DNA from: a virus
Lineage: Duplodnaviria; Heunggongvirae; Uroviricota; Caudoviricetes
Direction: 5' to 3' (one strand)
Length of the DNA: 58,022 nucleotides
Virus record (IMG/VR): IMGVR_UViG_3300031994_000017
Location: 1-58,022 of that record
Below are positions 9,574 to 54,284 of this stretch, piece by piece. Numbering within the stretch: the first letter of the stretch is position 1; every line of letters begins with the position of its first letter. Below the pieces are notes generated by a model, which was not told where the DNA came from, searched no databases, and was given only the letters and a program-made list of their open reading frames with translations. A program made the translations under genes and the position numbers.

Positions 9574-10809
9574 ATGAAATTTGGTGTTCGTGAATGTTGT
9601 GACGTCGTTCTGCGTGCCAAAGGCACTCAGAAAGTCGGTAATAAGATTTTCTATAAGAATGAACCAGTTATTTATTTCGATACTTTAAAAACCTCCAGTC
9701 TTGAAGGTGCTGCCACTACTGTTTATGCTCAAGGCGGTCGTGGTAATGCTCGTTTAATGTCTTGGGACGGTGAAAGAACTCTTACATGGACTATGGAAGA
9801 TGCTCTTATTTCTCCTATTGGTCTTATGATTTTAACCGGAGCCGGACTTATTGATAGTCCAGCTAAAAATAGTAATAAAGAAGGTATTATTGTTCATACT
9901 ACAGAACAAATTCAATTATCTGATGCTAATTTTGCTTTATTAAATAATAATGCTGGTTATAAAATTCTTTTGTCTGAAAATCCCTATGACCCTAAAGATT
10001 CTAGTAATCATTATACAGCTGATAATATTTATGTCATGAGATTAGATTCTAATGGTGATATTATTTCTGAGCCATTTATTGGTACTGCTACTGCTGATTC
10101 TAAATGGATTGAAATTAAGGCTCGAGATCGTTATGATGACGCTGGTAATAAGTGGGAATATGGTAAAAATTTAGATGAAGTCGGCGGTTTTGCTCGTCAC
10201 ACTAAAGGATTAGCTAAAGATGATGTAGTTCTTGTTGACTATTATCGTGAAGTAAGAGGAATTGGTGCGGCCCAAGAAATTAATATTACTCCTGATAAAT
10301 TCGGTGGTAGTTATTATCTTGAAGCTTCTACTCTTTTCCGTAATGAAGATGGTCTTGATATGCCTGCGGAATTTATTATTCCTAACTGCCGCGTTCAGTC
10401 TAATTTTACCTTTACATTGGCTTCTAATGGTGATCCTTCAAGCTTTACTTTCACCATGGACTGCTTCCCTGACTATACTCGTTGGAACAAAACTGAAAAA
10501 GTCCTTGCTACAATTCAGGTTATTACTGAGGGCACTGGTGCCGGTAATGAGTTAATGCGTCTTGAAACTAACCACCATGGAGTTTATGTCCATGAGAATC
10601 TTGACGGTACTATTACAGATGAGCGTTATGCGGCCTAGGCTGGTTCTAATAAGAGTGAAACTGATTATCCTGCTGAAACTGATGGCGCTATTGGCGGATA
10701 TGCTGCTTATCATACCAGTGATAGTGATGTAGCTACTTTTGCTGGTTTTAATGATGACAAAGAGCCAGCAGATAGTAATGGTTCTGCACTTGGAAAGATT
10801 TCGGGTTAA
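9574..10809 (+). CDS. Major tail tube protein (354 aa to TAG; 411 aa with readthrough)
   Basis: Strong SD, biased codons, IYFDTLKTSSLEG...VYAQGGRGN motif. One TAG (10636-10638), then 56 more codons to TAA. Confidence 0.75.
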
Positions 10810-35911: not shown

Positions 35912-35960
35912 CTCATATTTATTAAAAAAGTGGAGTAATAAATTAAAGCTTTAGGACCAA
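35912..35960 (-). promoter_or_regulatory. Candidate late-promoter motif, copy D
   Basis: Minus strand TTGGTCCTAA...TTTTTTAATAAAT; spacing 38. Upstream of 35364..35870. Confidence 0.45.
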
Positions 35961-36442
35961 TCAAAACCAATATTTTTAACTTCTATATTTAATCCAGCTT
36001 CTCCAATACAAATAGCATCACAAACATCTTCAGAAACATTTAATTTATATTTGCTCTTAACATATTGTTTAGCTCGTTGTTTGCAGGTTGCTCTATCAGC
36101 ACCCCAAAGAGAAAGTCTTTTTCGCCATACACTTGGAGCCAATATTTCATAATCTATTTTTAATTCTACTAATAATTCAGTTATAACTCCAATTACTTCA
36201 GCTAAGGTTTTATAAGTGGATACATTATTACCAATATTACTTTCTAATTGAATATCTTCTAGAAATACTTTTTCAATATTTTCAGAAAGCAATATATTAT
36301 TTAACCACTATCGTATTTTTTCTAATCTATGATCTAATTTTGTTCCTGTGGCTGTATAAATTCCAGATTTTATTAATTCATTTCCTTCAAAAATAGCATA
36401 ACCGGTAATTTTGCTGCTCTAATCTAAAGCTAAAATTTTCAT
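35951..36442 (-). CDS. ruvC: RuvC-like Holliday junction resolvase (~163 aa, 2 TAG)
   Basis: MKILALD[Q]SSKITGYA, VFLEDIQ, DVCDAICIG motifs. Confidence 0.8.
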
Positions 36443-36966
36443 TTAGAAGTAGAACCAAAGCCGCCCATGCGCCTGCCAGAAGCTTTGTCGTTATCAGTTA
36501 AATTATAGTTTTTAATAATACCTTGACCAATAATATCTCCCTTTTTTAAAAGGATGGGGAAAGGAGATAAATTAATTAACTGAAAGAAAATTTCTCCTTC
36601 ATTATCAGGATTATTATAATAATCGCTATCAATAATGCCAACTCCATTTGCCATAATTAGCCAATATTTTAATGGAGAAGAGCTGCGTATTGATAATTCA
36701 AGGTATTTATCTTTTTCTAAAAAACATTTTATACCGGTAGATACTAAAGAAGGTTTAGCCACGTATTTTTTAGTTAATTTTGCCATTTCTTCAAGTGTGT
36801 ACGGAATATATGCGTCATTCTACATATTATGTATATGATATATATAAGGTTGAATTAAAGTATCTTCCGCCACCTAAAAATCATAGCCCGCGGATTGGGC
36901 GGTTTTGCGTTCGGGTAAGCGAATGTCCGCGTTCTAAAATTTGCTTACAACTTCAAAACGAGCCAT
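36439..36966 (-). CDS. dut: Trimeric dUTPase (~175 aa, 3 TAG)
   Basis: SAGYDF, IRSS, GIIDSDYY, IGQGI, RMGGFGST motifs; ends TGA. Confidence 0.9.
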
Positions 36967-37487: not shown

Positions 37488-38022
37488 AATATACAACACC
37501 TGCCTCGTAAGGGAATAGATAGAATATTTCTGGCGCTTTATCATCTTTATTTAAACAGGCCCAAATTTCCCAAGCATTATTTTCTTCATCAAAGCTAATA
37601 GAATATACTTTAGAAAAATTTGAAAGAATTTCCCATAATATTGATGGAAGAGAATCTAAGCCTTCATCAGCTCCAAATTCTTTATAAGCAAATAAGGTGT
37701 AATAATTATAACGAGATGATAATAACATATAATAATTTTGATTAATTGAATTCATCCAATTAACAATTTTTTCATAATAATCATCCATAAATTTTTCTTC
37801 AGTTATGGGAGGGAATTGTATGACAGAAGATTGATTTAATTCATATAAAGACATAGTAGGACCAGAAACACCTTCTTTAATTTTTGCTTTTGGCATTTCA
37901 TCCCAGTTATGTCCGTTCCGAATATAACATTTTCCAGTTTCTTCAACTTCTACTATTGTTCCATCTGAAATTTTTTTTAATCGAAATAAATCAGTATATT
38001 TTTTAACAACATTATCTCTCAT
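37480..38022 (-). CDS. Hypothetical protein (180 aa)
   Basis: Intact ORF with SD and its own promoter. Confidence 0.7.
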   Translation of the reverse strand: MRDNVVKKYTDLFRLKKISDGTIVEVEETGKCYIRNGHNWDEMPKAKIKEGVSGPTMSLYELNQSSVIQFPPITEEKFMDDYYEKIVNWMNSINQNYYMLLSSRYNYYTLFAYKEFGADEGLDSLPSILWEILSNFSKVYSISFDEENNAWEIWACLNKDDKAPEIFYLFPYEAGVVYYG

Positions 38023-38048
38023 TTAAAAACTCCTTTTTTATTTTCTTT

Positions 38049-38077
38049 ATTTTATCATAATTTTTCTACAAAGTCAA
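38049..38077 (-). promoter_or_regulatory. sigmaA-type promoter
   Basis: TTGACT-17-TAAAAT with TG extension. Confidence 0.6.
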
Positions 38078-38545
38078 ATCTATTATTCTTTGATTACTAG
38101 AACCACGCATTGGCAAAGAAATATCTCTTAATTCATCAATGTAAGGACCATCTACAATGCCAGTAATATTGGACAGAATATATAAAATTCTATTATTTTT
38201 TCTTGCTAATAATTGTTCAAAAGTATAACCAGTCCATATCCAAATTTTTAAATCAGGATATTTCTTTTTTAATTCTTTGATAATAAATTCTACTAAAAAA
38301 CTATTGCTTTCGCATAATGGTTCCCCGCCCATTATACAAAAAGTGCGAGGAATACCATTAGCGAATAATTCATTCTCTATTTCTTGTAAAGTCTCATAGG
38401 TAAATTCTTTTCCGCCATCAAAATCCCAGGTTTCTGGATTATGACAGTTTTTACAATGGAAAGGACAGCCTTGGGTGAAAAAAGATAAGCAAACCCCAGG
38501 AGCAGCAGCTATGTCATTTTTTATCATGCCAGCATAACGCATCAT
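38066..38545 (-). CDS. nrdG: Anaerobic RNR activating enzyme (radical SAM)
   Basis: QGCPFHCKNCHNPETW CxxxCxxC motif, GGEPL, RGSSNQRII. Confidence 0.95.
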   Translation of the reverse strand: MMRYAGMIKNDIAAAPGVCLSFFTQGCPFHCKNCHNPETWDFDGGKEFTYETLQEIENELFANGIPRTFCIMGGEPLCESNSFLVEFIIKELKKKYPDLKIWIWTGYTFEQLLARKNNRILYILSNITGIVDGPYIDELRDISLPMRGSSNQRIIDLTL

Positions 38546-40833
38546 TCTAAGACCCCCACATGTTTTACTCTATGATGAACTTCATCTTGTTTGCCGAGAT
38601 TAAATGCTGTTGTATAATTGCCTGTAAGATAGCCTGTTACACGACGCAATCTTTGTATATTATTTTTTCCGCATTTTGGACATTCATGATTAATTTCTCC
38701 CTAAAATCCGCAATCAAGACAAGTATCTGAAGGCACATTAATAGCGAAATAAGGAATATCATGGTCCATGGCATAATTTACAATCTACTCTAAAGCTTCA
38801 ATGTTATTTACTGCTGAAGCATCAAGTTCAATATAAGTAATACAGCCAGCGTTAGAGTATCCTGTTAACTAACTTTCTATATCAATTTTATCAAATGGAC
38901 TAATGTTATGCCATACAGGTACATGCATGGAATTAGTAAAGAAATCTTTATCGCTTACTTTTGGGATAATACCATATTTAGCTTTAAATTTTTTCATCGC
39001 AGTATAACAAAGATTTTCGGCAGGGCTATAATAAACACCAAAGTTTAAATGATATTGTTGTTTAAATTCAGCACAGCGGTTTTTAAATAATTGTTCAATA
39101 CGTTTTGCTAAGTCCATGCCTTCTGAAGTAGTATGGTCTTTACCAATAAGAATTTGTAATGTTTCTGCTAAACCTAATTGGCCAATTACTAAAGTTCCAT
39201 GTTTTAAAGCACTACGAATTCCTTCTTCTGGATGGTATCCTAACATAGTATTATTTTCATACATGAAGCGAGCGCTTGATTCGTCTTGTGAGCATATCCA
39301 TTCAAAACGCTCTAATAATTCATCTTTTGCGTCATGAATTGCCTCATCTAATTTATCCATAAAATTATTAATTCCATCACGAGCATCAAAGTAATCTGTA
39401 TTTTTATATTTTTCTACCGCTTCCATAGCTAAAGTGGGCATAATAATTGTTACTGGAGCTATATTGCCTCGTCCATCTTTACGTTGAGGATTTACTCCAG
39501 GTTCAGCGTTAATATCAGCTCCATTGGCAGTCCTGCATCCCATTGTACTAAAGTAGGTACAAGGGTCTTGTCTATCATACCCAACGTTTCCAGACCAGTC
39601 TACATTGGCATAATTGGGGTATAGTCTACGTGCCGTGGATTTAAGCGCAAGACGATATAAGTCGTAGTTTGGGTCTCCTGGTTCACGATTTACTCCTTTC
39701 ATCATTTGGAATATTCCACAGGGGAAAATAGATGTTTTATGTAATTTGCCAATACCTTCAATAGATACTTCTAATAAAGCTTGAGTTATCATACGACCTT
39801 CTGGTAATGTACAAGTACCATAATTAATAGAAGTAAAAGGCAATTGATTTCCCGAACGTGATTGTAATGTATTTAAATTATGATACATACCTTCAACTGC
39901 TTGATGGATTTCACGTTCTGTCATATCCATAGCATATTGATATGCATTTGGACAATTTAAATTATTATAAAATTCACTAACAATTGGAATATCTATAATT
40001 TTTATTCCTTCTGGAGGAGAACAATCTAATATTCTATGTTCTACGTAAACAATTCCATCTCTAAAGTGTTTATGGAAACTTTTACGAACATAAGGAACCA
40101 TAGTCCAATCAAGATGAGTAGCGCTTACGCCACCAAATTGCTACAGACTTTGTAATTGAAAAATAACTGCTACAAGTTGAAATGCAGTATTAACAGAGCC
40201 GGCTGGCCGCACATCAGTTTGACGAGTATTGAAACCATTAGCCAATAAGTCATCAAAAGGAATACTTAAACAATTATGCATTCCTACTGCATATGAATCT
40301 AAGTCATGAATATAAATTCTATTATTTTCATGATTATACCTATGTTTTGCCGAAATTAAATTATCCAATGCATATTTACGAGTCATTACGCTAGTTGCTT
40401 CACCCATACGACCGCCGAAAGAACGTTCATCTACATTGGCATTTTGATTTTGGACATTACTAGCTTGTAATTTTTCTCCAATAGCATCGAAAAAATCAGT
40501 TGAAGTTTTTCTTGCTACTTCTTTTTTATACCTATAACGGATGTATGCACGAGCTACATCAGGACGCTCAGAATGCATTAAATATTCTTCTACTAAATCT
40601 TGAATTTGTTCTACTGAAATTGTTTTTTGAAAAATTTCTTCAATAGTGGGCGCATGATCAAAATTTTCATTTTTTATAAGGCAATATGAATAAATTTCAT
40701 TTGCTATATCTTTAGCTGTATCAGTTTCATATAATTGCCCGTCAACTTCAATAAAAGCTTTATTTATTGCATTAATAATTTTCTATTTATTAAAAGAAAC
40801 TTGTGTTCCATTTCTTTTTTTAACTAATACCAT
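38542..40833 (-). CDS. nrdD: Class III anaerobic ribonucleotide reductase with ATP cone (~763 aa, 5 TAG)
   Basis: N-terminal VKKRNG ATP cone, TMGCRT, SPAENLC, zinc site, RLRRVTGYL glycyl-radical motif; pieces joined by TAG. Confidence 0.95.
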
Positions 40834-40897: not shown

Positions 40898-41122
40898 TTA
40901 GCTATTTTGGCCCAATTCGTCTATTAGTCTATTGATATACCAGATTGCCTTTTTTAAATCTTCTACTCCGTTTTTAAATTTCCAACGCCATAAATACTTT
41001 ATAGCATTGGCAGTACAGACGGCCTCAATTCCCTCAAGGCCGACTGTTGCTGCTTTAAGTCCGTCAATACACTCAATTCCGCCAGCAGTATAATGGGCGG
41101 GATGATTTACCATATCATTCAT
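40898..41122 (-). CDS. DUF3310-like protein (74 aa)
   Basis: VNHPAHYTAGGIECID...KYLWRWKFKNGVEDLKKA signature. Confidence 0.85.
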   Translation of the reverse strand: MNDMVNHPAHYTAGGIECIDGLKAATVGLEGIEAVCTANAIKYLWRWKFKNGVEDLKKAIWYINRLIDELGQNS

Positions 41123-44100
41123 CTTCCATATCTCCTTTGTGTCGTTCTGTTTGGAAAGTTAAATCTCCGTTATCTAAAATTTGATTAATTTTATATAATT
41201 GATGACCCCCAGTTGAAGCATATTTTTTGGCTACAAAATTATCACCGCGTCGCATACCTTGCACCATAATCATATTACCTCTATTGAACCAAGAACGTTC
41301 TACAACTGTTTTTGTTCCATCAGAATTTTTAATTGAAATTTGTTTATCAAACAAAGAAAAATATTCTTTACTAAATTTTACATCTACAACTCCACTAGTT
41401 GTTAAAATTGTCGCTAGACCTTTTTGTTTATCTTTTGCGATACAAGTTCCTGCGATTTTTGTTAATTTAAAGATAGGAATTTCTCTGCCGCCCTTAAAGA
41501 ATGTTCTTTCTACTTCTGGGATTTCAGATAACTTATTAAAATCTTGAATACCATATTTGGTAAAATTGACATTAGCTAATTCATGCTCATGGTAATAAAA
41601 ACACAAAGTTTCCATTTCCCAAGCTGAATAAGTGCCTAACGCATATTTATTCCAATCTGTAATAAAAATCATATTATTAAGAGTGGTTAATACTTCTTTT
41701 TGATGACTTGAAAGCCAATTGCGATAAACGTTCATCCATTTTTGATATACTTTATCCCAAGTCTTTGCATCAAGAATATAAGATGTAGTATCATAATTAT
41801 AAAAATTAATTTCGGTTAGAAAATTAATAGCTCTATCATCAAGTTTATAAGAAGTAGCATTTAGTTTGCATTCACTTTTTAGATAACGATTAAATTCATA
41901 AATTCTATAAGCCATTTTTTCTTCTTCTGTTGTTTTAGGAAGAAGATTATATTTATTAAGAGTCGCCATATTTTGTAGATTTAATTTACTTTTTTTATCG
42001 CAGGTTTCCCAAATAAACCAAATCATATTGTCTTTGCGGCTCATAAAACTATCAAAAGCACCACCTTTAATAAGAGAAATCATAGCAGCTTTATTTGGTT
42101 TAATTCTATAATAAAAATCTTTAATAGAGGTGTATGGGCGGTTTTTAATAATTTGTTCAATCAAATCATCTCCAACCCGCAGCATGCCTTTTAAACCAAA
42201 CCAAATACTATTAGTTTTTTCATCTGGAACAAAACTATAAGTAGAATTATTAATATCAACTAAATTAATATTAACTCCTTCGTCTCTCATTTTTCCGATG
42301 GCTTTTGCGATTTTATCATAATTGGTGTTTTGCTCTTTTTTATCCTCATATTCTTCAAAATCTTCTTCGTTTTCAATTGCACCACTATCTACGATAAGAC
42401 AAGCGCAATTCCAATAAATAAGAGGATATTTATAAGCTATATTCATTTCTTGTAAAGCTACAAGTGAATATGCAAGTGTATGAGACAAGTTAAAACCATA
42501 GCCACGAGAAGTTGCGACTAAGACATTCCAAACATAATTACAAAGATTTTTACTTAGACCCTTTTCTGCGGTTTTTTCAAAATACTCTTTTGTGATTGCT
42601 TCATATTCAACAGGATTTTTCTTAGCAATAGATTTACGCAATCTGTCAGCAAAGTTTAAGTCAAAACCTCCACATTCGGGAATCTGGACTAATTGCATAA
42701 AACATTCTTGACTTTCCGCAATTCCATAAGAGCCTCCAACATATGGTTTAAGAATTTCTATTTCTTTTTTTGTTAGACCATTTTGCCGCATTTCTTCATA
42801 CCAAAGATTTATATTCTTTTTAAAGCGAGCAAATTTGTTCAATGGCTGTTCTGCGCCTTTTTCTTGCGCCATAAGTCTAATAACAGAATTCAAGTGGGCT
42901 AAATCTTCTACACTTTGTGGTTTTGTCAAAGCGATGCCTTGAATACCACTTTGTTTTTCCATTTGGAACAATGATAGAATTTTATGCTCCCAAACCATTT
43001 TCCACATTTTTGGATCATTACGTTCAAGATTATAAATACCTAAAACCTTTTCATAAGTTTCTTTTAAAGTAGGCTCTGGCGTAATTAATCCCGCATTAAC
43101 AAGTAAATCCAAACAAGTATGAAGTTTATCTTCTGCTTCAACACTTAAAGCATCATATTTAATAAGACTACACGCTTCTGCATCATGCAAATCAAAAGCG
43201 GTTATAATCGTTCCATCTGGAGCGCGCATAAGAGCTGTAGAATTAGTAAAAGGTTCATCTACAAAAATTACACCGCCAGCATGAATACCACAGCGGCACA
43301 CCAATCCTTCAATTTTTTGGGCAACTTGCCATAATTCAGGTTGCGCGTCCATTTCCTTAATAAATAAAGGAATGGGTTCAAAACCATTTTCTTTATCTCC
43401 ATAATAACATTGCTTAAGAGTACGAATAATATTTCTATCACTGGGTACTAATGAAGCAATATATTGAGCTTCGTCTACATCAATTCCTAATCCTCTTGCC
43501 GCAGTTAATATAGCAGATTTAGATTTTTCAGTACCAAAAGTAATAACATTAGCTACTCTATCTTCACCATATACTTCTCTAAATTTATTAAGAACTTGCG
43601 CTCTTCTACCGCCCTCTATATCAAAGTCTACGTCAAGGACTGAGACACGCGCAGGATTAAGAAAACGCCAAGGATAAGTACGCACATCTTCCCAAAGTGG
43701 ATTAATTTGAGTAATATCCAAAAGATAGAGAAGAATAAAGCCTACACCAGAACCGCGGCCAGGTCCTACAATACTTCCTGCTTTCCAACAGGTATCAATA
43801 ATATTTTGAAGATTAAGATAATAGGCGGACCAATGTGCTTTATTTACTTCTGAAGATTCCCAAGTCATGCGCAAACACTCATTAATTGCATCATAAATGT
43901 GCTGCTCTTGTAAATTTTTATTCAATTCAAGCTTATTAACTATTGCGCAGGCTAATTTATTATCACCAATATATTTAGAATTATAAAAAATTTTAAGATA
44001 AGGAATTAATTTTTCATATTTAATTCTATATGTTTCATTGTATGAATGAAATTTCCAAAGTAATTCTGGAATTTTTAAAGGTTTTAATAAGCTATAATCT

Positions 44101-44987
44101 TCACACTTTTCTTTTATCTCAATAATATTTTGATAGGCAATTTGAAGTTGCTCTTCAGTTAATTCAGTTAAATAACTTTCTAACTCTTGAGTTCCCATCA
44201 TATAAGTTGTAGCATAGAAAGCATCAACTTCTCTGTCTCCATCTTGCGAGTTAAGATATGCTTTATGAATTGAAGCATCTTCTTTTTTAAGATAATGACT
44301 ATCTGTTGTAATAATATATTTAATATTTAATTCTTCTGATAAACGAAGCAGATTTGTATTAACATATTTTTGTTCTTCGTTATTGGACGGTTGTAATTCT
44401 AAATAAAAATTTCCATCAAAGAGATTGTTCATTGTAATAAGCCAATTTTTAATTTGTTTTATTAGCGTTACATCAAGACTACTTCTGTATCGTAAAAGCT
44501 GAGTGGGAATAAAACCTCCAAGACAGGCCGTACTACCAATCACGTGGCCGGGGTTAGGGCCAATAATATCAATTAAATCTTGATAATATGTAGGTACTCG
44601 TCTCATACGACGAGAAACATAAGAACGCAACCAAGCACGAGTTGAAATTTCTCTTATTTGTTGATGCCCAATAGCATCTTTAGCCAATAGAATAAAATGA
44701 TAATAGTTATCATTTTCTCGGTTATAATTTTCAGCGGTTAAACCATTTCTAACTAAATAAATTTCGTTACCAAGAATTACTTTAAAATTTGGATTATCTT
44801 CTTTTATTTTTTTATAATATTTTTCAACCTTAACCGCATTACTAACGCATTCATGGTCTGTAATGGCTACTACTTCATGGCCTAATTCAATTGCGTAGTC
44901 TATTAAGTCCTTAGGTTTTATAATACAATCTCTTAGTCGGATATTACTATATTCAGTATGGTTATGTAAGCTTCCAGGATATTCCAT
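41115..44987 (-). CDS. dnaE: DNA polymerase III alpha subunit, DnaE-type (1290 aa, no TAG)
   Basis: PHP motifs (LHNHT, TDH), GPGRGSG, LDVDFD, GIHAGG, GFNLSH, C-terminal OB fold. Confidence 0.95.
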   Translation of the reverse strand: MEYPGSLHNHTEYSNIRLRDCIIKPKDLIDYAIELGHEVVAITDHECVSNAVKVEKYYKKIKEDNPNFKVILGNEIYLVRNGLTAENYNRENDNYYHFILLAKDAIGHQQIREISTRAWLRSYVSRRMRRVPTYYQDLIDIIGPNPGHVIGSTACLGGFIPTQLLRYRSSLDVTLIKQIKNWLITMNNLFDGNFYLELQPSNNEEQKYVNTNLLRLSEELNIKYIITTDSHYLKKEDASIHKAYLNSQDGDREVDAFYATTYMMGTQELESYLTELTEEQLQIAYQNIIEIKEKCEDYSLLKPLKIPELLWKFHSYNETYRIKYEKLIPYLKIFYNSKYIGDNKLACAIVNKLELNKNLQEQHIYDAINECLRMTWESSEVNKAHWSAYYLNLQNIIDTCWKAGSIVGPGRGSGVGFILLYLLDITQINPLWEDVRTYPWRFLNPARVSVLDVDFDIEGGRRAQVLNKFREVYGEDRVANVITFGTEKSKSAILTAARGLGIDVDEAQYIASLVPSDRNIIRTLKQCYYGDKENGFEPIPLFIKEMDAQPELWQVAQKIEGLVCRCGIHAGGVIFVDEPFTNSTALMRAPDGTIITAFDLHDAEACSLIKYDALSVEAEDKLHTCLDLLVNAGLITPEPTLKETYEKVLGIYNLERNDPKMWKMVWEHKILSLFQMEKQSGIQGIALTKPQSVEDLAHLNSVIRLMAQEKGAEQPLNKFARFKKNINLWYEEMRQNGLTKKEIEILKPYVGGSYGIAESQECFMQLVQIPECGGFDLNFADRLRKSIAKKNPVEYEAITKEYFEKTAEKGLSKNLCNYVWNVLVATSRGYGFNLSHTLAYSLVALQEMNIAYKYPLIYWNCACLIVDSGAIENEEDFEEYEDKKEQNTNYDKIAKAIGKMRDEGVNINLVDINNSTYSFVPDEKTNSIWFGLKGMLRVGDDLIEQIIKNRPYTSIKDFYYRIKPNKAAMISLIKGGAFDSFMSRKDNMIWFIWETCDKKSKLNLQNMATLNKYNLLPKTTEEEKMAYRIYEFNRYLKSECKLNATSYKLDDRAINFLTEINFYNYDTTSYILDAKTWDKVYQKWMNVYRNWLSSHQKEVLTTLNNMIFITDWNKYALGTYSAWEMETLCFYYHEHELANVNFTKYGIQDFNKLSEIPEVERTFFKGGREIPIFKLTKIAGTCIAKDKQKGLATILTTSGVVDVKFSKEYFSLFDKQISIKNSDGTKTVVERSWFNRGNMIMVQGMRRGDNFVAKKYASTGGHQLYKINQILDNGDLTFQTERHKGDMEDE

Positions 44988-45021
44988 TTGCCTACTCCTT
45001 TTTTCTTTTTTCTTTTCTTAT

Positions 45022-45050
45022 ATTATATCATATTATAAATAAAAAGTCAA
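45022..45050 (-). promoter_or_regulatory. sigmaA promoter for the polymerase gene
   Basis: TTGACT-17-TATAAT with TG extension. Confidence 0.75.
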
Positions 45051-45054
45051 ATTA

Positions 45055-46254
45055 TTATGCCCGAACTAAAACTAATCTATTTTGCGCTCTGGTGATTAAA
45101 GTGTATAAATATTTAGTATGTTCATCTGATGTGTATGGAAAATTTTCTTCATATCCTAATATCTTGCCCCACTCACTACCTTGAGCTTTCCAGCAAGTAA
45201 TAGCATATCCATAATTAAAATGTAATGGAAAAGGTTCTTTTTTATAACGTCGTTGTAGCAGATATTCTTCTTTTCCTGAAAAAGAGGGAATACCAGTCAA
45301 TAATTCATTATAATCTGCTGTCAAATTTGAGAAAGTTTCACCTGCTTCATCACCAGTAATATCCATTTTTAATAAATTTACATAAGTAGGTTTCCTTCTA
45401 AGTGCATATGGATAAGCATAATTAATTGTTTCATATTTTTTAATTTGTCCTATAACGCCATTAGTTAAAGGATTATTATTTGATGATAATGTTTCCCATT
45501 CATTATGTAAATTAATTACTTTATCTCCTATTACTGGATGCTCTTCGGGATACTCTAACGTTTTTCGCATATGAAAATTTAAGTTTTTACGGGTATTGTT
45601 AGTGGCACAAATAATCTAATCAGCCCAAAGCATCATACCATCAGTAACTTCAAATGGATGCACAATCATTACTTCTTGATTAATATCTGTTTTAGGAAAT
45701 GTATATAAAGGTTTCCCCTCTCTGACGTGCATAGACAAACGGATAATTTCACTTTCTTGTGCTTGCCGCATTACTTCATCTAAGAAAATATGCGGATGTT
45801 CAAGAATACCATTATTTTGGTCTTTTTCTATTGGCGGTAATTGCATGGGGTCTCCTAAAGCAATTATATATACATTATGAGAGCAAAGTAAATTCCAAAG
45901 ATTTTTTGGTAACATAGAAACTTCATCAACAATAATGATTGATGGTTCGCCTTCTAGGACTTCTTTTGGAGTAAATGAATATTTCCCATTGGGCATTAGT
46001 TTTGCTCGGAAGAGTAATTTGTGAGCGGTGATTGCATTCGAGCATCCTTTGTTTTTTAAAACATTGGCGGCTTTGCCAGTATATGCTACATAGCGTATAT
46101 CTTCGGATGGAACATTTAAAGCTTCTACAATAAATTTAACAAGAGTACTTTTTCCTGTTCCTGCAAATCCAGAAATACAAGTATATTTTTCACCTGCTTT
46201 ATATCTAGCTACTGCAATTTTTAATCCTGCTTCCTGCTTAGAGGTTAGCTGCAT
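45055..46254 (-). CDS. RecD/Dda-like SF1 helicase (~399 aa, 1 TAG)
   Basis: GFAGTGKST, IIVDEVSM, LGDPMQL, WKAQGSEW; the two ORFs join through TAG 45616-45618. Confidence 0.9.
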
Positions 46255-46576
46255 TATTATGTCTCACCACCCAATCACTATATTCTTGAAACCAAACATT
46301 ATATCTACTTATAAAATAATTTTGTATATCTTCAATATCTAATTCATCAAAAACAAATAAATTATAAATATTACAAAAAACTTGCCCGTACTCTTCTTCT
46401 ATGGCGGTAAGGAGGTTAGATAAACTACGACCTTCTCCTAAAAAATTACTAAAATCAAATTTATCTAAAATTTCTATACTATATTTAAAAGCGGGACTAT
46501 TCTTACATTTGCGTTTAATATAATTATTTGCGCCTTTTATTCTATCTTTTTTAAAACGTTCTGTATCTATATTCAT
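46238..46576 (-). CDS. Hypothetical protein (112 aa)
   Basis: Intact ORF with SD GAGG. Confidence 0.6.
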   Translation of the reverse strand: MNIDTERFKKDRIKGANNYIKRKCKNSPAFKYSIEILDKFDFSNFLGEGRSLSNLLTAIEEEYGQVFCNIYNLFVFDELDIEDIQNYFISRYNVWFQEYSDWVVRHNNAANL

Positions 46577-46665
46577 TTTTACCTCTTTTTGCGATAAAAA
46601 AAGTTAATCACTTTTTTTATTTTGATTTTCGACAACTTTGAATGTGCCCGGTCGGATGCCGATTG

Positions 46666-48417
46666 TTAAAAATAAAACGGCTATCTCTTTATTATTTCAT
46701 AATCTTGAACCAATATTTGAGGATTATATTGTCCCATCCATTCATTCATGGTACAAGTTCCTACAATATTTATTTCTATATATCCATTTTCACTATATAA
46801 ATTATTAAATTCTTCTTCGCTAGATTTAAATTTAATAGCACTTACATTATTAACATTTGAAATATTTATTTTTAATGTTGGATTGCGATCTTTTGCCATA
46901 AGAGTTATTTTATCTTTTGTAATTTTAATATTTTCAAAAGCAATTAATGGTTCAGCTACATTCTATCCCCACAAATCTTCTCTTGTTGTTAAATCTTCAA
47001 TAACTGGAACATAGTTATCGTCTGCTCTAAAAATAAAATCAACAAAATATGTAGGTTCAAATACTAAATCTTTTAATTTTTCATCGGTTATTTTAATAAA
47101 TTCTTCTATTTTATCCGCGGCTATAGAAAAACCAAAAGCGTTTTGATGACCCTCTGCATAATCTATTATTTGAGTATCTGAAAGCAGGTCTTTAAAATTT
47201 TCCAAAGGGGAATTAGCAAAATTACGTCCTGAACCCGCGTAATGAATTTTTCCTTCTGTTTCAATTTCATTAAGAATTAAAGTCGGATGCTAAAACTCAT
47301 TTGCAATTTCATTAGCGATTAAGCCTGTTAGGTTTTTATTAGCGCTATATTCTGGCGACAAAAGGACAAGTAAAATTTGATGTTTTAACAAATCTTGTTC
47401 TTCAATTAATTGATGAACTATTTTTAAATTATCATCACGCTCATTCGTTTGTGCCTTTTTCACATTTCCGCACATTCGTAAAGCTTGAGTAATAATCTTT
47501 TCTTCTTTTCCTTTTTCTCCACGTTTAGTTGATGGTACTAAAATATTAGCCCTGTGTTCTAACATTGACTCAAATAATATATCTTTATCTCTTAAACTAC
47601 CAACTCTAGTAACAGCATTTACTAAAGGAACAAGATAAAAAGCTATTTTATGCTAAGTTATTTCGCCCTAAAAATGAAACTAATCTTTATCTATAATACC
47701 CTTTATAAAAGGGTTGGTTATATGATTAAAACCTCTACGAATTAGTTCGCGAGTTTCTAATTGCCGCACATCCATCATATCTCCAGTCAGACCTACAGCA
47801 ACCAAGTCAATAAAATTTTCTGCCTTTTGGATTTGTAATAAACCATCTATATAACAACAAAATTTATAAACCATTCCAACACCAGATAATGTTTTATTAG
47901 GATAATTGTCCAATTGATTATTTATAACACAAGCATATGGAGAAACTTGTTCAGCTTCATGATGGTCAATTACTAAAATATCAATTCCATGTTCAGATAA
48001 TTCTTTGTGAAGTGCTATTTCATTACTACTGGCGTCTGGAACAATAATAAATTTGGCATCATTAGGCAAAAAATCTAAATCTATTCCATGTTCTTTCTTT
48101 TCATGTAAACCCCAAGTGACGCAATTTTCTACATAATTAGGGAAAAGGGAATGTAAATAATTAATTAAAAATGCTGCGCTTGTATAGCCATCGCAATCGG
48201 CGTCTACTTGTACATATGTTTTATCTTTCTAAGATATGTGTTTAATCAACATCCTTGCGCCCTATTCTATATTACTAATTAGTTTAGGACTTAGTATATC
48301 TAAATAACTTGTATTACAATAATTATCTATGCTATCAATTGGAATACCTCGGTTATAAAGAACTTGTTCCAAGGGAGAATAATTAGGGTTTCTTTCTTGT
48401 ATTAACTTATAATTCAT
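46666..48417 (-). CDS. recJ: RecJ-like DHH ssDNA exonuclease (~583 aa)
   Basis: VDADCDGYTSAA, VIDHHE, GHQNAFG; four ORF pieces share a frame through TAG; ends TAA 46666. Confidence 0.9.
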
Positions 48418-48724
48418 CTTCTTTGTCTCCCCAATATTTAAATGCTTGATAAGGATAAGCCACAGTAGAAGGACGAATTATAGTTGAGATTACATTTTCT
48501 GGAATTCCTCTTTGAATATAAGAAATATTACATTTATGGCCGCGAAAGCAATCTCTCGCGGGACAAGCTATCCAGAAATCGCCATTTTCGCACTACATTT
48601 CAAACGAATTATTAATAGATTTAATTTGTGTTGTTTTATAAAGCATTTTTTCATATTGTTGCTAAATTTCTTTTAATTTTTCAAAACCTTCAGTTTTATC
48701 TTTATACCACACTATACCTTTCAT
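48407..48724 (-). CDS. Hypothetical protein (~105 aa, 2 TAG)
   Basis: Not in the ORF track; ATGA-coupled to primase; open to TAA if TAG=Gln. Confidence 0.5.
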
Positions 48725-49830
48725 AAAAAAATCCTTTCTTTAAATAACTGAATAAACTTATCTTTTCCTTCATCTATTGGACTTGCTTTGTATGAAGTTA
48801 TCATGTCTTTGTCAAAAAGAAAAGAAACTTTTATATCTTTTGAATTTCTATCATAAATTTTTAATAAATTGTTTTTTAAATGTTTAAATTCGGTATCACC
48901 AATTTCTTGGAATTGGCGGTCAAACGCTATTGCGATTTCTTCAGCGCCGCATTGTTTTAAAAGATATACTTGATATTGTGATAAATTACTTCCACAACAA
49001 GCTACGCTTATATCATTTTCAAAACCAAAGTATGATTGATATAAAAGAGCAGATTTTTCACTTTCAAAAACAATTGCTGTTTTAGCTTTTCTAATATTAT
49101 CTTTAGAATGATTAATATTATATAAGTTTAATCCAAGAGGATGATTATACATAACTTTATTGATGGTTACAGGTCTGTATTTTCCATATAAATCACAATC
49201 TTGTTGGCACATAAAACGACCGCGCAAACCTATAAATCGTCCTTTAATATCAAAATGAGGTATTGTTATTTGGTCATTTCCTAAATAATATCCAATTCGG
49301 TTATATTCAATAACTTCTTGAGAAATATTTTCTTTTAGCCAAGGAGTTAATTTAATTGAATAATTTAATTTAGTTAAAATATCTTCATCATATTCTTTTA
49401 ATTCAAAAAATTCTAATTTTTTAAAATCTAATTCTTTTAAACGAATATAATCATTTAAACAATTCCAATCCTCTAGACCAAAGTATTCTTCATTTAAAAT
49501 TATTTGAGAAGAAATACCAAACTTTGCGGCTATATATTGAATTGTTTCATTTAAATTTAATTCTTGTTGTTTTTGAATATGAAAAACTTTTCTAGTTAAT
49601 TCAAAAATATCAAAACTAGGTTCCGCGCAACCAGTATAACAATGAAATAAATTACTGTTTGAATACCAATATAATTTTCTACTGCCTATTCCAGGTTGGT
49701 TATGGCAAATAGTGGCGGAGATAATACCAAAATTAGTGTATTCTGGTTCTCCGCCCCATTCAGCCAAGAATTGATAAATTTGCTCTTCTGTAAGTTGCTC
49801 CTTTATCTTATCTTTGTCAAAATTGAACAT
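48721..49830 (-). CDS. DNA primase (369 aa, no TAG)
   Basis: TICHN...CYTGC zinc motif, VFESEKS and IAFDR TOPRIM motifs. Confidence 0.85.
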   Translation of the reverse strand: MFNFDKDKIKEQLTEEQIYQFLAEWGGEPEYTNFGIISATICHNQPGIGSRKLYWYSNSNLFHCYTGCAEPSFDIFELTRKVFHIQKQQELNLNETIQYIAAKFGISSQIILNEEYFGLEDWNCLNDYIRLKELDFKKLEFFELKEYDEDILTKLNYSIKLTPWLKENISQEVIEYNRIGYYLGNDQITIPHFDIKGRFIGLRGRFMCQQDCDLYGKYRPVTINKVMYNHPLGLNLYNINHSKDNIRKAKTAIVFESEKSALLYQSYFGFENDISVACCGSNLSQYQVYLLKQCGAEEIAIAFDRQFQEIGDTEFKHLKNNLLKIYDRNSKDIKVSFLFDKDMITSYKASPIDEGKDKFIQLFKERIFL

Positions 49831-50018
49831 TAAAAGGTCAACACCTTAATGCAAATTCCTTTAATTCCATATTCTTCATTAACGATATTACATAAATAAT
49901 TTTGAATATCACTAGTGCGCTCCTTGCCTTTGCGCATCTTTAAATAGTTCTGAGCCATCTCATTAGTCATCTTATATTCAAAATATCCGGCATTAACATC
50001 ATTATTATTTTTAATCAT
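49830..50018 (-). CDS. Hypothetical protein (62 aa)
   Basis: Intact ORF with SD, coupled to primase. Confidence 0.6.
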   Translation of the reverse strand: MIKNNNDVNAGYFEYKMTNEMAQNYLKMRKGKERTSDIQNYLCNIVNEEYGIKGICIKVLTF

Positions 50019-50032
50019 TTTTTTCTCCTTTA

Positions 50033-51565
50033 TTAAAAAGCGGAACGAGGTTCCACGTCTATTTTTAAATCTTTAATTTCAACTAATTCATAATTATAAG
50101 TAGTAGCAAACATAGGTTCTACCTTACAACGTCCTAAATTTCCCTTACACCAAAGATAAATTCCCTTGTATCTACCTCTACGATTTTTATAAATAGAAAT
50201 CTTTAAAAAAGGTTTTTCAAATACCCCTGCAGAAAGGATTTTATCAAGAGATTGTATATCTTTTTCATTTACCGGCAACATCACAAGGCCGACGTCAATT
50301 TTGTCCGCAATTGATTTCGCTCCTCGCAAAAGATTTTGGTCTGGAGTTTCCGAGTCAACATAAGAGCCATTTAACTGAGTGGCGGACAAAATAAAAATAC
50401 CATATTTGGTACATAAATCTTTAAGTTTAATAGACATCATAAAAAGAATATTATCTTCGCGCAATTTAACTCCACCACTACGACGAGTAATTTCTTCTAA
50501 GATTTTCATTGAAGTATGAATATAGTCTAAACAAATATATCTAATTTCTTTATCACGAATGTTTTTAACAATAGAATTTTCTATATCCTGTAAAGAAAAA
50601 TCTGGAATTGTTTCAATATATAGTGGGCTATTTTCAAGGATTTCAATTGCTTCATAAACTCTCTTTTCTTCATCGCCCTCATAGCGACCATTAAGAATAT
50701 GATCTTCGTCTACGTCCGCGAGAAAAGCTAATATCATAGTTTGAACTTCATCAAGAGTTTGTTCTGTTGTAATGAATAAAGTGGGTTCTTTTACTCCATT
50801 TTTAATCCAAGAGCCAAATTGTTCATTATATATCTTATCGCAAGCAAAGTTACAAGCATCCGCTATCATTGTTCTTGATTTTCCGGTTCCAGTAGGGGCT
50901 GACCGCAAATATAACTTACCTAATCTTGCGCCACGAGTAATAGTATTAATCATTGAACCATAGAGTGGTATACCTACTTCTGGACTTTCTTTTAATCCTT
51001 CAATTAAATCTCTAATATTTTTTGATGCTTGTATAGACTCATTTTCAAAATTATCAACATATTTTGCTTTTATTTCGGTAATTTTATTATCTATTTGTTC
51101 AGCGATTTGCTCTAAAGAAGAATTATCTAATCTGTCCTCTTGGAGCTGGCGCTTTTTTACATCCAAGATATTATCTGGGTCATAAATATCTGTTACATCT
51201 ATTCCAAAAGTATCATATGCGCGCAACAAAGACATTTTTTTCATGCGGTGATAATAATAATCAAACGATGAAGGAGAAGCATTTTCAGAAATTTGAATTA
51301 ACCATTCTTCACCTTTTTGCTTATCAAAAATGGCTTTACTTTTTGGACGAGTTTTTAAGAAATCTAAAATATTTAAAAGATTGATTTGAGAGGCTCCCAA
51401 TTCATGTAAATTATAAATTGTGCCAAAAATAATTTTATGAAAATTATCCGGAAAATCTTCTTCAGTAATATTGTATTTATCTGTAAAATCCAAAAGTTGA
51501 GGATTATTATAAACACAACCTATTACTTGAATAATACTAGTTAAATCAACATATTTAGATGCCAT
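50033..51565 (-). CDS. dnaB: DnaB-like replicative helicase (510 aa, no TAG)
   Basis: SAPTGTGKS, ICLDYIH, SATQLN, LRGAKSIADKID, KNRRG. Confidence 0.9.
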   Translation of the reverse strand: MASKYVDLTSIIQVIGCVYNNPQLLDFTDKYNITEEDFPDNFHKIIFGTIYNLHELGASQINLLNILDFLKTRPKSKAIFDKQKGEEWLIQISENASPSSFDYYYHRMKKMSLLRAYDTFGIDVTDIYDPDNILDVKKRQLQEDRLDNSSLEQIAEQIDNKITEIKAKYVDNFENESIQASKNIRDLIEGLKESPEVGIPLYGSMINTITRGARLGKLYLRSAPTGTGKSRTMIADACNFACDKIYNEQFGSWIKNGVKEPTLFITTEQTLDEVQTMILAFLADVDEDHILNGRYEGDEEKRVYEAIEILENSPLYIETIPDFSLQDIENSIVKNIRDKEIRYICLDYIHTSMKILEEITRRSGGVKLREDNILFMMSIKLKDLCTKYGIFILSATQLNGSYVDSETPDQNLLRGAKSIADKIDVGLVMLPVNEKDIQSLDKILSAGVFEKPFLKISIYKNRRGRYKGIYLWCKGNLGRCKVEPMFATTYNYELVEIKDLKIDVEPRSAF

Positions 51566-52232
51566 TTATATCATCCTCCAAAATAAATTGGAATGAATTG
51601 TGGCGCGTGGTAAATTTTGCCCGCGGAGATTTAATTGTAATCTGTTCTTCTTTTGGTACATAATCTTGAATATTTTTTCCTTCATTAGATTGTTGAGCTA
51701 ACCATAAACTATAATAATAATTATAAGCTTCTTGATAAAGATAAGGAATTATATTTATTGTGGGATGTTTACAATCTATTTTTATAGTTTTTTTAATTTC
51801 AAGACCATAAATTAAAGTTTTTAACATTCCAGAATAAGTATAATTATATTGTTCTATTAAAGTTTTTTTCTGTTTGCGGATATTAGGAGGCACCCACTCA
51901 ACATTAAATATCTTTTTTATATATTCATCTAATTTTTCTTCATCAGTAAATTCTCGGTTTTGTTCTTTATCATAGCAATCTTTGTGCGCATACTTATTAT
52001 CTGATACCAAAACACAAGGCTCTTTTACGCGATTAAATATTTTTTTACAATATATACATTTAACGTTTTCTGTTGGGTCTACTATTTGTATATCTTTTAA
52101 AGCTGGATTAGTAAGTTTTTCTCTTAAAAAACATTCTGCGTGCGCATAACGCCTTGAATTAATTTTCGCATATGGTTTTGCGTCACGGTCAAATTGCTAT
52201 TGACAATATGCACATTTAACATAGTGAGGCAT
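51555..52232 (-). CDS. Tandem zinc-finger protein, possible helicase loader (~225 aa, 1 TAG)
   Basis: Two CxxC...HxxC units; own promoter; directly upstream of dnaB. Confidence 0.6.
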
Positions 52233-52267
52233 ACAACATCCCCCATATTTTTTATATTTTCATATAT

Positions 52268-52296
52268 ATTATATCATAATTTTTACAAAAAATCAA
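52268..52296 (-). promoter_or_regulatory. sigmaA promoter for the ZnF-dnaB-primase operon
   Basis: TTGATT-17-TATAAT with TG extension. Confidence 0.7.
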
Positions 52297-52324
52297 CCTA
52301 TAGTCTCCCATAGGTTGATTTTTT
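52287..52324. terminator. Inverted repeat/terminator overlapping the -35 box
   Basis: AAAAAATCAACCTAT / ATAGGTTGATTTTTT 15-bp stem. Confidence 0.7.
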
Positions 52325-52339
52325 GAAAATGTAAATTTT

Positions 52340-53314
52340 TTACTTTAATAAATCTGTTTTAATTTCATCAACAATTAGATAAATAAGCTCTACTTGGTCT
52401 CTGGTTGCGTCAGAAACTTTTTTACCCTTCCCGAGATATTTATCAATAATTGATGTAATTCTAGGAGCATAATACAATTGATTTTTTGTCATAAGTTGAC
52501 CAACAATTGTTTCAAACTCTGACATAAGAGCATCAAAGTCATAATTAGGCGCATCAACAGCGACTTCTCTTTGTTCAGTTACATAGGCGTTTTGACTACT
52601 TGCCGCCTCTTTATCAATAGCATCGTAAAGGGCTTTTACCAAGTTATCATATCCAAAAGGAATAGAAGAAGCAATTTGACTGAAACGACTTTTACAATCA
52701 ACACTTTCATCTGGTGAACGAAGAATTAAAGTTCTTTCTCCATTATTTACATCAATATAGCCCATAATGTCGCTCATATTTTTAATAATTTCATTATAAG
52801 CTGTTGAGCAAGAAGGAACAATTTGATTGTATTCAGTGCCATCTTTGCGCTTAAAGGTTTTGTCCTTGCTGTGTGAAATAAAAACAACGGCATAACCTTT
52901 CATAGTAATAGAACGGAAAGTAGTTTCCCATTCGCGCTTTACTTTTGCCCAACCATTAGTACTCCAACCACCATCGCCAATATTTTCAATACCCAATTGA
53001 CTACAAAGATATTTTTCACAAAGTTGCGAAGCAATATCAACAGTATCCACTACAATTGTTTTAAAGGTATTTTTAATATCGGGGTCATCAAGCTGACGTA
53101 AAACTTGCTTCATTTCACCCCAAGTAGTAACATCCTAAGCGAAAACACCAGGAAGAGCATTATAACCTTTTTCAAAAGCCAAAAGAAGTGGACTAGGCAT
53201 TTTTGAACCAAAAGTAGTCTTACCTGCGCCACCAGGCCCATAAATATAAGTAATATAACCGCTTAAATCACGGCTAACTTTATGCGGCTAAAGAGCCTTT
53301 AGATTAATAGCCAT
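52340..53314 (-). CDS. Sak4-like P-loop ATPase/ssDNA annealing protein (~324 aa, 2 TAG)
   Basis: IYGPGGAGKTT Walker A, IVVDTVD Walker B, ISHSKD; next to an SSB-like gene. Confidence 0.75.
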
Positions 53315-53342
53315 ATTTAATTCCTCCTATTAAGGTTTTTGA

Positions 53343-54284
53343 TTAAAAACCAAAAACCTTATCATTAGAGGTAGAAACGGGGGCAGTAGCTGTCGCAGCC
53401 CGAGAAGCCTTATACGCATCTTGACGTTCCTTAATAGTAGCAAGATAAACTTCACGGTCAGCCATTGCCTTAGACAGTTCATCAGCGGTGATGAATTCAT
53501 CGCTATCCCATTCATAAGGTTCTTCCTTCGCACCAGTTACAACAAAATCACGCTTTGTGGTAGGAACTTCTCTAGTAAAAGTTTCACCAAAGGCAGAAGC
53601 GGAGGTCTGAGAACGAACTATAGTCTGAGAAATCTGATGGCCCCAAACCTGAGTACAGAAAGGATTACTACCGCTAATATTCTGATTTTCAAAATAATCA
53701 ATGGCATCGGGGTTCAAAACAGTATATTCTACAGGCAACAGAGCATTATTATAATTAAAAATAGCGCCTCTAATAATACCCTTTTCGGGGAGTTCGCGGT
53801 CTGGGTCGGCCTCAACACGCCGGAAGCTAGTAATTACCATATCAGTCTTAAAGGTATCTCTATTTCCTTCCTTGGCGGGCAGAGTATCTACAATAGTGAT
53901 GAAACCGCCCTCATTACGCTTTAAAGATACAAGCTCTTCCTTACCATTTCTATCGGAATAAAACTCATTAAGAGCAATAGCAGAGTCAATGGAAACCTTA
54001 GTGGCAACATCCTTGCCGTCCTTCATAATAGTCTTATAAAAACCATTACAAATATTAGAAAGAATAGTGTAATTAGGATTATTCTTACCCTTACTTGTAA
54101 CAGGAGTTACATAAGTATAATGAACTGAAAGAATATTCGTACAATCATCATTGGTAGCAATATCAAGAGTACCAGTGATATATTTTGTATTAGGGTTCTT
54201 AGAATTAGGCCCAGTTACCTTTTCCTCAAGCTTACTTTCATAAATCAAACCTGCAATAGTAGTAGCATTAAACATTTTTCTCAT
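53343..54284 (-). CDS. Putative single-stranded DNA-binding protein (313 aa, no TAG)
   Basis: Intact ORF, high-expression codon bias, flexible tail ending in F; context beside Sak4. Confidence 0.5.
   Translation of the reverse strand: MRKMFNATTIAGLIYESKLEEKVTGPNSKNPNTKYITGTLDIATNDDCTNILSVHYTYVTPVTSKGKNNPNYTILSNICNGFYKTIMKDGKDVATKVSIDSAIALNEFYSDRNGKEELVSLKRNEGGFITIVDTLPAKEGNRDTFKTDMVITSFRRVEADPDRELPEKGIIRGAIFNYNNALLPVEYTVLNPDAIDYFENQNISGSNPFCTQVWGHQISQTIVRSQTSASAFGETFTREVPTTKRDFVVTGAKEEPYEWDSDEFITADELSKAMADREVYLATIKERQDAYKASRAATATAPVSTSNDKVFGF

Follow-up and report, generated by a model that had tools for sequence, protein, structure and literature searches.

We analysed the distribution of the codon TAG among the replication and nucleotide-metabolism genes of a gut phage of the class Caudoviricetes (IMG/VR record IMGVR_UViG_3300031994_000017). 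The window, by which we mean the whole stretch of 58,022 nucleotides that was analysed, comprises bases 1-58022 of this complete virus record of 150,408 bp, which has direct terminal repeats. The phage is an SPbeta-like siphophage that reads TAG as glutamine by means of its own tRNA(CUA), and its relatives point to Bacillota as the host group. We find that the TAG load of a gene is gene-specific, non-random and conserved among recoded lineages, with the replicative polymerase DnaE almost free of TAG and the resolvase RuvC and the exonuclease RecJ rich in it, and that TAG-free and TAG-rich genes overlap each other within operons.

Genetic code and suppressor tRNA

From position 1 to 35.3 kb the plus strand of the window carries a structural and lysis module (portal, YonB-like capsid, tape measure, tail, endolysin) in which TAG is read as glutamine, and the tape measure gene of 3207 amino acids (aa) alone contains 108 TAGs. 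From 35.4 kb onward the minus strand carries genes of replication and nucleotide metabolism. TAG accounts for 268 of the 569 glutamine codons of the structural genes (47%) versus 15% in the minus-strand module. No tRNA gene was found within the window; in the whole genome ARAGORN predicts 32 tRNAs, including a tRNA(CUA) at c[104164,104240], so the suppressor is encoded by the phage itself. The acceptor end of this tRNA has U1, G2-C71, G3-C70 and G73, which we take to resemble the identity elements of tRNA-Gln.

The reading of TAG as glutamine is borne out by alignments, since TAG stands mostly opposite glutamine in standard-code relatives, often in glutamine columns that are otherwise invariant. 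Glutamine is the commonest residue opposite TAG in the alignments of NrdD, RecJ, RuvC, DnaB and RecD, and in NrdD it makes up 131 of the residues found opposite TAG. Of the five TAGs of NrdD, two precede the glycyl-radical domain and three are inside it. Searches of the genome for a release factor (RF-1 domain) and for GlnRS or another class-Ic synthetase gene gave no match.

Genes of the replication arm

The genes concerned are listed below, with annotations from Pfam, PHROGs and Atlas; counts are TAG over all glutamine codons of a gene, and ORF stands for open reading frame.

41115-44987, minus strand: DnaE-type replicative polymerase of 1290 aa with PHP, pol III alpha, finger and HhH domains, SPbeta YorL-like; 0/45, its glutamine codons being 41 CAA and 4 CAG
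45055-46254, minus strand: Dda/RecD-like helicase of superfamily SF1; one TAG, at codon 213
46238-46576, minus strand: small ORF with no assigned function, overlapping the RecD start by 17 nucleotides (nt); no TAG in 3 glutamine codons, which is uninformative
46666-48417, minus strand: RecJ-like exonuclease for single-stranded DNA with DHH, DHHA1 and RecJ_OB domains; 8/26
48407-48724, minus strand: small ORF g48407, overlapping the primase stop by 4 nt and the RecJ start by 11 nt; two TAGs
48721-49830, minus strand: primase-like protein (phrog_47); 0/20
50033-51565, minus strand: DnaB-like replicative helicase; 0/17
51555-52232, minus strand: zinc-finger protein (ZnF, phrog_4680); one TAG, at codon 12, with no alternative start
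52340-53314, minus strand: Sak4-like AAA_24 ATPase; TAG at codons 9 and 60
53343-54284, minus strand: YorF-domain protein with a predicted fold like that of single-stranded DNA-binding protein (SSB); 0/6, five of the six being CAG
38012-40833, minus strand: NrdD and NrdG, the anaerobic ribonucleotide reductase pair, overlapping by 4 nt; NrdD 5/34
38012-38545, minus strand: NrdG; one TAG, at codon 160 of 177, in the C-terminal tail
35951-36966, minus strand: dUTPase and RuvC-like resolvase, overlapping by 4 nt; three TAGs in the dUTPase
35951-36442, minus strand: RuvC-like resolvase; 2/5, at codons 8 and 45

The gene identities proposed in an earlier reading of the sequence, which we call the original prediction, all hold by Pfam and PHROGs. 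Its claim was that the core replisome is free of TAG while accessory DNA enzymes carry it, and its TAG-free set stands for dnaE, primase, dnaB and the SSB-like gene but not for nrdG. TAG is present in every gene for which it was claimed, namely once in recD-like and ZnF, twice in Sak4-like and ruvC, three times in dut, four times in ThyX-like, five times in nrdD and eight times in recJ. The pattern had been placed at 41115-54284, and this interval does contain the replication genes, with NrdD, NrdG, dut, ThyX and RuvC lying outside it.

Annotation error does not explain the TAG-bearing genes. Starts and ribosome-binding sites were checked, and the TAGs of ZnF, Sak4, dut and RuvC are internal. 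The exception is the ThyX-like gene, whose likely start is an ATG at codon 11 with an AGGAG ribosome-binding site; the first two of its four TAGs come before this codon. A compositional cause was also rejected, because TAG-free and TAG-rich genes are not separated by their CAG/CAA ratio or by local GC content. In NrdG, a stop at codon 160 would still leave a near full-length protein, to which read-through adds 18 residues, and the code switch could thereby give two C-terminal forms.

TAG load across genes and lineages

Within this genome, the fraction of glutamine codons that are TAG is heterogeneous among the 23 minus-strand genes (Monte-Carlo P = 2.5e-4); the genes responsible are DnaE (P = 1.6e-4), RecJ (P = 0.017) and a GIY-YIG endonuclease (P = 0.007). 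Of the TAG-free genes, DnaE alone reaches significance by itself. With this genome taken singly, the evidence is marginal for primase (P = 0.03) and for DnaB (P = 0.053), and YorF and NrdG have too few glutamine codons to be informative (P 0.37-0.84). A per-gene test of the kind suggested with the original prediction thus upholds the depletion of DnaE and leaves primase and DnaB at the margin, and the small TAG-free genes carry no weight. The contrast between core and accessory genes is 1/93 versus 26/124 (Fisher 3.7e-6), a comparison that is circular, as the two sets were picked by their TAG content.

For the comparison with relatives we retrieved 36 DnaE loci and 37 portal loci, and then 19 whole relatives. 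Collapsing near-duplicates left 11 recoded lineages and 6 with the standard code, and each gene family was tested against a leave-one-out background computed per lineage. The counts that follow are for the recoded lineages. DnaE has 3 TAGs among 497 glutamine codons where 48 are expected (P < 5e-5). Topoisomerase II is depleted in both subunit families (topoII-A 1/181, topoII-B 1/144), as are the RNA-binding protein phrog_850 (0/99), ligase (0/61, P = 0.01) and primase (3/120, P = 0.008), the three TAGs of primase all coming from one lineage; the ligase and topoisomerase II genes of this phage are located just outside the window. DnaB (10/150), NrdD (22/287), RecD (12/145) and Sak4 (6/111) are at background level, together with NrdG, ZnF and dUTPase. 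At the other end, RuvC is enriched (38/94) and bears TAG in 11/11 recoded lineages, and RecJ is enriched (40/220 against 16.7 expected) with TAG in 9/9. Enrichment is also found for the endonucleases (GIY-YIG 51/179, HNH 26/64), for PhoH (25/149) and for a membrane protein, g35364 (19/68). The random spread of TAG among orthologues that would have spoken against the original prediction is therefore not seen.

The loads are repeated from lineage to lineage, although the individual codons for the most part are not. In the RecJ alignment 21 TAG columns belong to a single lineage and 7 are shared, and in NrdD the numbers are 19 and 1. Because most TAG columns are private to one lineage, the gains of TAG have been largely independent. 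Per-gene TAG density in this phage correlates with that of the other lineages pooled (rho 0.64 for non-structural and 0.72 for structural genes), and the correlation is positive in 42/42 pairs of lineages.

To describe the range of loads we fitted a Poisson mixture, which ignores overdispersion, to 72 gene families. Two classes give a Bayesian information criterion (BIC) of 604, three give 522 and four give 507, so that at least three classes are preferred and the gradation is, as had been proposed, finer than a split into early and late genes. In the three-class fit, one class, at 0.06x the genome average, holds DnaE, primase and YorF together with ligase, topoisomerase II and a large number of early genes; a second, at 0.63x, holds RecD, RecJ, Sak4, ZnF, NrdD, NrdG, dUTPase, the ThyX-like gene and DnaB; and a third, at about 2x, holds most structural genes, RuvC, the endonucleases and g35364. 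The original prediction had assigned the core replisome to the lowest tier, the recombination and nucleotide-supply genes to a middle tier and the tail and lysis genes to the top. This agrees with our classes for DnaE, primase and YorF, for RecD, RecJ, Sak4, ZnF, NrdD, dut and ThyX, and for tail and lysis; DnaB and NrdG turn out to be in the middle class, RuvC in the top class and the capsid in the lowest.

Two features of the TAG-rich families deserve separate mention. The GIY-YIG gene of this phage (window 55825-56925, minus strand; 8/23) and its HNH gene (genome 102083-103003, minus strand; 8/15) are among its most TAG-rich non-structural genes, and the richness of homing endonucleases in TAG agrees with what has been published on an intron endonuclease of Agate phages. 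The TAG at codon 8 of RuvC is common to six recoded lineages, and we considered it as a selected gate; it occupies a conserved glutamine site, and with about 40% of RuvC glutamine codons being TAG, some 4 of 11 lineages would have it there by chance, so we rejected the idea. At this codon CAG is found in a sister lineage and CAA in the remaining ones.

TAG-poor virion genes

Within the TAG-rich late module lies a gene that is itself free of TAG:

4549-5670, plus strand: YonB-like putative major capsid gene

Family-wide, the capsid gene has 2 TAGs among 142 glutamine codons where 44 are expected. A scaffold-like gene (3854-4528, plus strand; 4/122) and a major-tail-like gene (9574-10809, plus strand; 6/91) are also poor in TAG, and the neighbours of these virion genes have 25-50% TAG, in a module whose average is 25-44%. 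Since these virion genes avoid TAG, translational demand or the cost of truncated subunits must also select against it, and TAG avoidance follows protein abundance as well as timing.

Operons and promoter-like sites

Overlaps of 4-11 nt join primase, g48407 and RecJ, ZnF and DnaB, NrdD and NrdG, and dut and RuvC. The small ORF g48407 links the TAG-free primase and the TAG-rich RecJ in one operon. Because TAG-free and TAG-rich genes overlap in operons, the contrast between them does not come from separate transcription units.

A strict scan for TTGACA-17-TATAAT-like sites, in which the spacer is fixed at 17 nt, gave 67 sigmaA-like sites versus about 6 in shuffled sequences. A general consensus scan over 35-55 kb gave 86 sites versus 106 in shuffles, that is no excess, and only the stricter class with the 17-nt spacer is enriched. 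Two of the sites are in the replication arm:

45022-45050, minus strand: promoter-like site of the sigmaA type, TTGACT-17-TATAAT, its -10 extended by TG; it ends 35 nt before DnaE begins
52268-52296, minus strand: promoter-like site, TTGATT-17-TATAAT, with ZnF as the first gene behind it

One class of site (TTGAYT, an AT-rich 17-nt spacer with TG, then TATAATATAT) is found directly 5' of DnaE, of ZnF-DnaB, of the ligase, of the topoisomerase operon and of the suppressor tRNA. Genes that start within 150 nt of a promoter-like site have 3 TAGs in 94 glutamine codons versus 110/699 for the others, and the TAG fraction rises with distance from such a site (rho 0.33, P = 0.007). Among relatives, a comparable site is present within 250 nt upstream of DnaE in 13/16, and RecJ, Sak4, DnaB and primase have a promoter-like site of their own in 0/14. 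The suppressor tRNAs of relatives have a strong site within 300 nt in only 2/7, and the link between promoter and tRNA is thus not general. Outside the window this conserved TTGAYT/TATAATATAT class lies at genome positions 60227, 67333 and 104376 (minus strand); it also heads tRNA arrays, and a second promoter-like class with a perfect TTGACA consensus is clustered at 128-147 kb.

Position of TAG within genes

In the non-structural genes of the 10 other recoded lineages, 35% of TAGs are in the first fifth of the gene versus 20% expected, and the first TAG is nearer the start than it would be by chance. The structural genes have no such 5' bias (18.5% vs 18.0%). The bias survives both the restriction to TAGs unique to one lineage and a jackknife over families. 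In the window, where the non-structural genes concerned are at 35364-57259 on the minus strand, the first TAG falls within the first 11% of the ORF in 9/13 TAG-bearing genes. This arrangement suggests that TAG causes partial termination during translation of non-structural genes and not of structural genes.

Related phages and exchange of genes

The phage shares with phAss-1 and the proposed Phassvirus group (Babkin et al. 2023, PMC10607447; OQ749652) a genome of 130-150 kb, genetic code 15, tRNA arrays with tRNA-Sup-CTA and a DnaE polymerase, and its tape measure of 3207 aa compares with about 3150-3209 aa in that group. A TAG-free capsid gene and a TAG-free DnaE gene are implied by the text of the phAss-1 authors and are found here as well. 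It therefore has the traits of a wider Phassvirus-like group (tape measure above 3000 aa, DnaE, tRNA-Sup-CTA array, capsid and DnaE without TAG). The relationship to phAss-1 is a distant one, with orthologues 23-48% identical, and its RuvC and NrdD are TAG-free, unlike those of the phage described here. A megablast search of the 22.5-kb replication arm against a phage collection holding OQ749652 gave no match; judged by sequence similarity, the phage would lie outside Phassvirus at the genus level. DnaE has 0/59 and RecJ 6/25 in phAss-1.

The replication genes also resemble a module of SPbeta type (YorL DnaE, YorF and YorK-like RecJ) known from Bacillus and Enterococcus phages, with which the YorF-domain protein and the YonB-like capsid protein are shared. 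Over 99% of its length, DnaE shares 38% identity with SPbeta YorL. SPbeta and its cultured relatives use the standard code, unlike this phage.

Recoded and standard-code lineages are interspersed in both the portal and the topoisomerase II trees, which require at least 3-4 changes of state. This implies either repeated gain or loss of the code or recombination of modules between recoded and standard-code phages. Relatives that share 60-75% identity with this phage in DnaE share 35-43% in DnaB, and others share 45% in DnaE and 67% in DnaB; an exchange of DnaE between lineages thus seems to have taken place. The match to DnaE is broken up or extends over about 5 kb in several relatives, which suggests introns, inteins or endonuclease insertions.

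What the TAG loads may reflect

The explanation towards which we lean, without great confidence, is that the TAG count of each gene is a selected, gene-specific trait and that genes needed early are kept free of TAG. Where a full-length product is needed before or during the build-up of the suppressor tRNA, as may be the case for DnaE, primase, ligase and topoisomerase II, the gene would be kept TAG-free, and such genes tend to sit right behind putative host sigmaA-type promoters of the class that is also located 5' of the suppressor tRNA gene. Genes needed late (RuvC, RecJ, the homing endonucleases, the membrane protein) would tolerate or exploit TAG at the density of late genes. These are promoter-distal, often overlap TAG-free partners in their operon, and usually have the first TAG in the first tenth of the ORF, so that a host with the standard code would terminate them early until suppression became efficient. 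A middle group (NrdD/G, RecD, Sak4, ZnF, dUTPase and, family-wide, DnaB) would carry a low load that varies with the lineage. If a gene has k TAGs and the suppression efficiency per codon is s, its yield would scale as s^k, and the TAG count could grade the onset of expression within a single transcript. Beside timing, translational demand would act as a second force that keeps TAG out of the most abundant virion proteins.

The original prediction had gone on to propose a programme of three tiers, in which replication starts in the host code, recombination and nucleotide supply need some suppression, and tail and lysis need efficient suppression. Promoter position and the 5' bias of TAG lend such a programme indirect support, and the timing of expression, together with termination at TAG early in infection and the adaptive value of the loads, is our inference. 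A bolder version, which we hold to be possible but doubtful, would make the TAG count a tunable translational timer within operons, with the yield following s(t)^k as the suppressor tRNA accumulates. The series primase, small ORF and RecJ, the series DnaE, NrdD/NrdG, and the series dUTPase and RuvC would then appear in a set sequence with no need for regulated transcription, a first gate codon close to the 5' end would keep aborted translation cheap, and RecJ and RuvC would be held off until replication is under way.

Several observations weigh against an explanation by timing. The 5' bias is strong in 3/7 testable lineages and absent in the other 4, and it is marginal in this genome (first-TAG P = 0.034). 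One lineage, G007, has 6/13 TAG in DnaB and two TAGs in DnaE, which makes it clear that a TAG-free core replisome is not obligatory. DnaB and primase have no promoter-like site of their own here and stand behind ZnF, which bears TAG. The capsid, scaffold-like and major-tail-like genes are late yet as poor in TAG as DnaE, and timing is not the sole force. The enriched genes never rise above the TAG fraction of the structural genes, which fits a lack of selection against TAG in them no less than selection for gating, and the data speak for the former. Finally, since four classes fit better than three and overdispersion is ignored by the model, a continuum of TAG load is as plausible as discrete tiers.

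Some of these observations are shared by an alternative that leaves timing out altogether, according to which demand or truncation cost alone keeps TAG out of abundant proteins (capsid, scaffold, tail tube) and of enzymes that in truncated form would poison their complexes (polymerase, topoisomerase, ligase), while all other genes drift to a neutral TAG fraction. The near-absence of TAG from three virion genes within a TAG-rich module is what it leads one to expect, a 5' bias in non-structural genes is a prediction of cost minimisation under partial suppression, and the ceiling on the enriched genes fits it too. However, high abundance is not to be expected of DnaE, ligase and topoisomerase, and the 108 TAGs of the tape measure gene imply that suppression is nearly complete late in infection, at which stage the cost would be small. 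Nor does it predict the association of TAG-free genes with promoter proximity or the conserved promoter-like site that DnaE has to itself. We consider this alternative unlikely as a complete account.

Gene flow offers another explanation, in which replication genes of the DnaE kind are often exchanged with standard-code phages and only TAG-free alleles work in both codes, so that recombination would keep TAG out of them and selection on expression would have no part in it. The interspersed lineages in the portal and topoisomerase trees and the disagreement between DnaE and DnaB identities, which indicates module swapping, are in line with it. Nevertheless RecJ, RuvC and NrdD belong to the same exchangeable module and have TAG in nearly every recoded lineage, DnaE uses the CAA-rich glutamine codons typical of the phage itself, and the nearest sampled DnaE shares no more than about 75% identity, a distance long enough for gain of TAG at the turnover seen for RecJ between sister lineages. 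On these grounds we regard gene flow as a very improbable cause of the pattern.

That the code change is recent and TAG is merely drifting, with DnaE having received none yet, is strongly disfavoured, for although primase and DnaB are marginal here, the small TAG-free genes are uninformative and the set of accessory genes with TAG varies among close relatives (PMC10607447, Table 2), DnaE is depleted over 11 lineages with independent gains, the loads correlate in every pair of lineages, the distant phAss-1 repeats the contrast between DnaE and RecJ, and the alignments give no sign of TAG positions inherited from one recent recoded ancestor.

Relation to known recoding systems

Streptomyces offers a parallel to selection on early-needed genes, the explanation we prefer. 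There bldA, which encodes the tRNA-Leu for UUA codons (TTA in the gene), controls the genes that contain TTA; the genes required first lack this codon and those required later have it, and its decoding hangs on a single tRNA that accumulates with time. That case involves a rare sense codon and a cellular developmental programme, whereas in this phage the host code treats the codon as a stop, the tRNA comes from the virus, and a graded TAG count could set different thresholds.

For gut phages, a model has been published in which stop-codon recoding regulates late and lytic genes: early genes keep to the standard code, the phage supplies a suppressor tRNA, and recoding affects the late and lysis genes (Borges et al., bioRxiv 10.1101/2021.08.26.457843). 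Work on recoding in phages had appeared before that (Ivanova 2014; Yutin 2021, PMC7886860). Borges et al. also ran tests of recoding and avoidance per gene family, reporting on lysis and tail genes, an intron endonuclease and integrase, and called the recoding of the replication machinery 'variable'. The phage described here is like theirs in reading TAG as glutamine by a phage suppressor tRNA, in the heavy recoding of structural and lysis genes and in early genes that are compatible with the standard code. It differs in that the replication module splits into conserved gene-level classes whose TAG-free and TAG-rich members overlap in operons, that abundant virion proteins avoid TAG, that a 5' bias is confined to non-structural genes, and that searches for release-factor and GlnRS genes gave none. 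The phAss-1 paper lists the ORFs that carry TAG and includes no test for selection at the level of the gene (PMC10607447).

The analysis thus refines the published model of early standard-code and late recoded genes, with expression timing still a matter of conjecture. What it adds is the gene-level hierarchy in the replication module, its occurrence inside operons, the avoidance of TAG in abundant virion proteins and the 5' bias. Recoding has so far been described as a switch with two states, and here the load is set gene by gene at no fewer than three conserved levels. If these levels reflect the dosage of suppressor tRNA, the number and position of TAGs would constitute a simple post-transcriptional timing device. 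The family, with 11 recoded and 6 standard-code relatives and independent gains of TAG, is a clean comparative set. Gene callers that apply two codes block by block will mis-annotate the interleaved modules of such phages.

Other TAG-free genes

TAG-free genes are also found outside the window, at genome positions 72217-74103 and 89537-92576 (minus strand), where glutamine is mostly encoded by CAG (14/20, 16/19 and 12/12), unlike in the rest of this CAA-using phage. The YorF gene is likewise rich in CAG, and these CAG-rich, TAG-free genes may be recent acquisitions.

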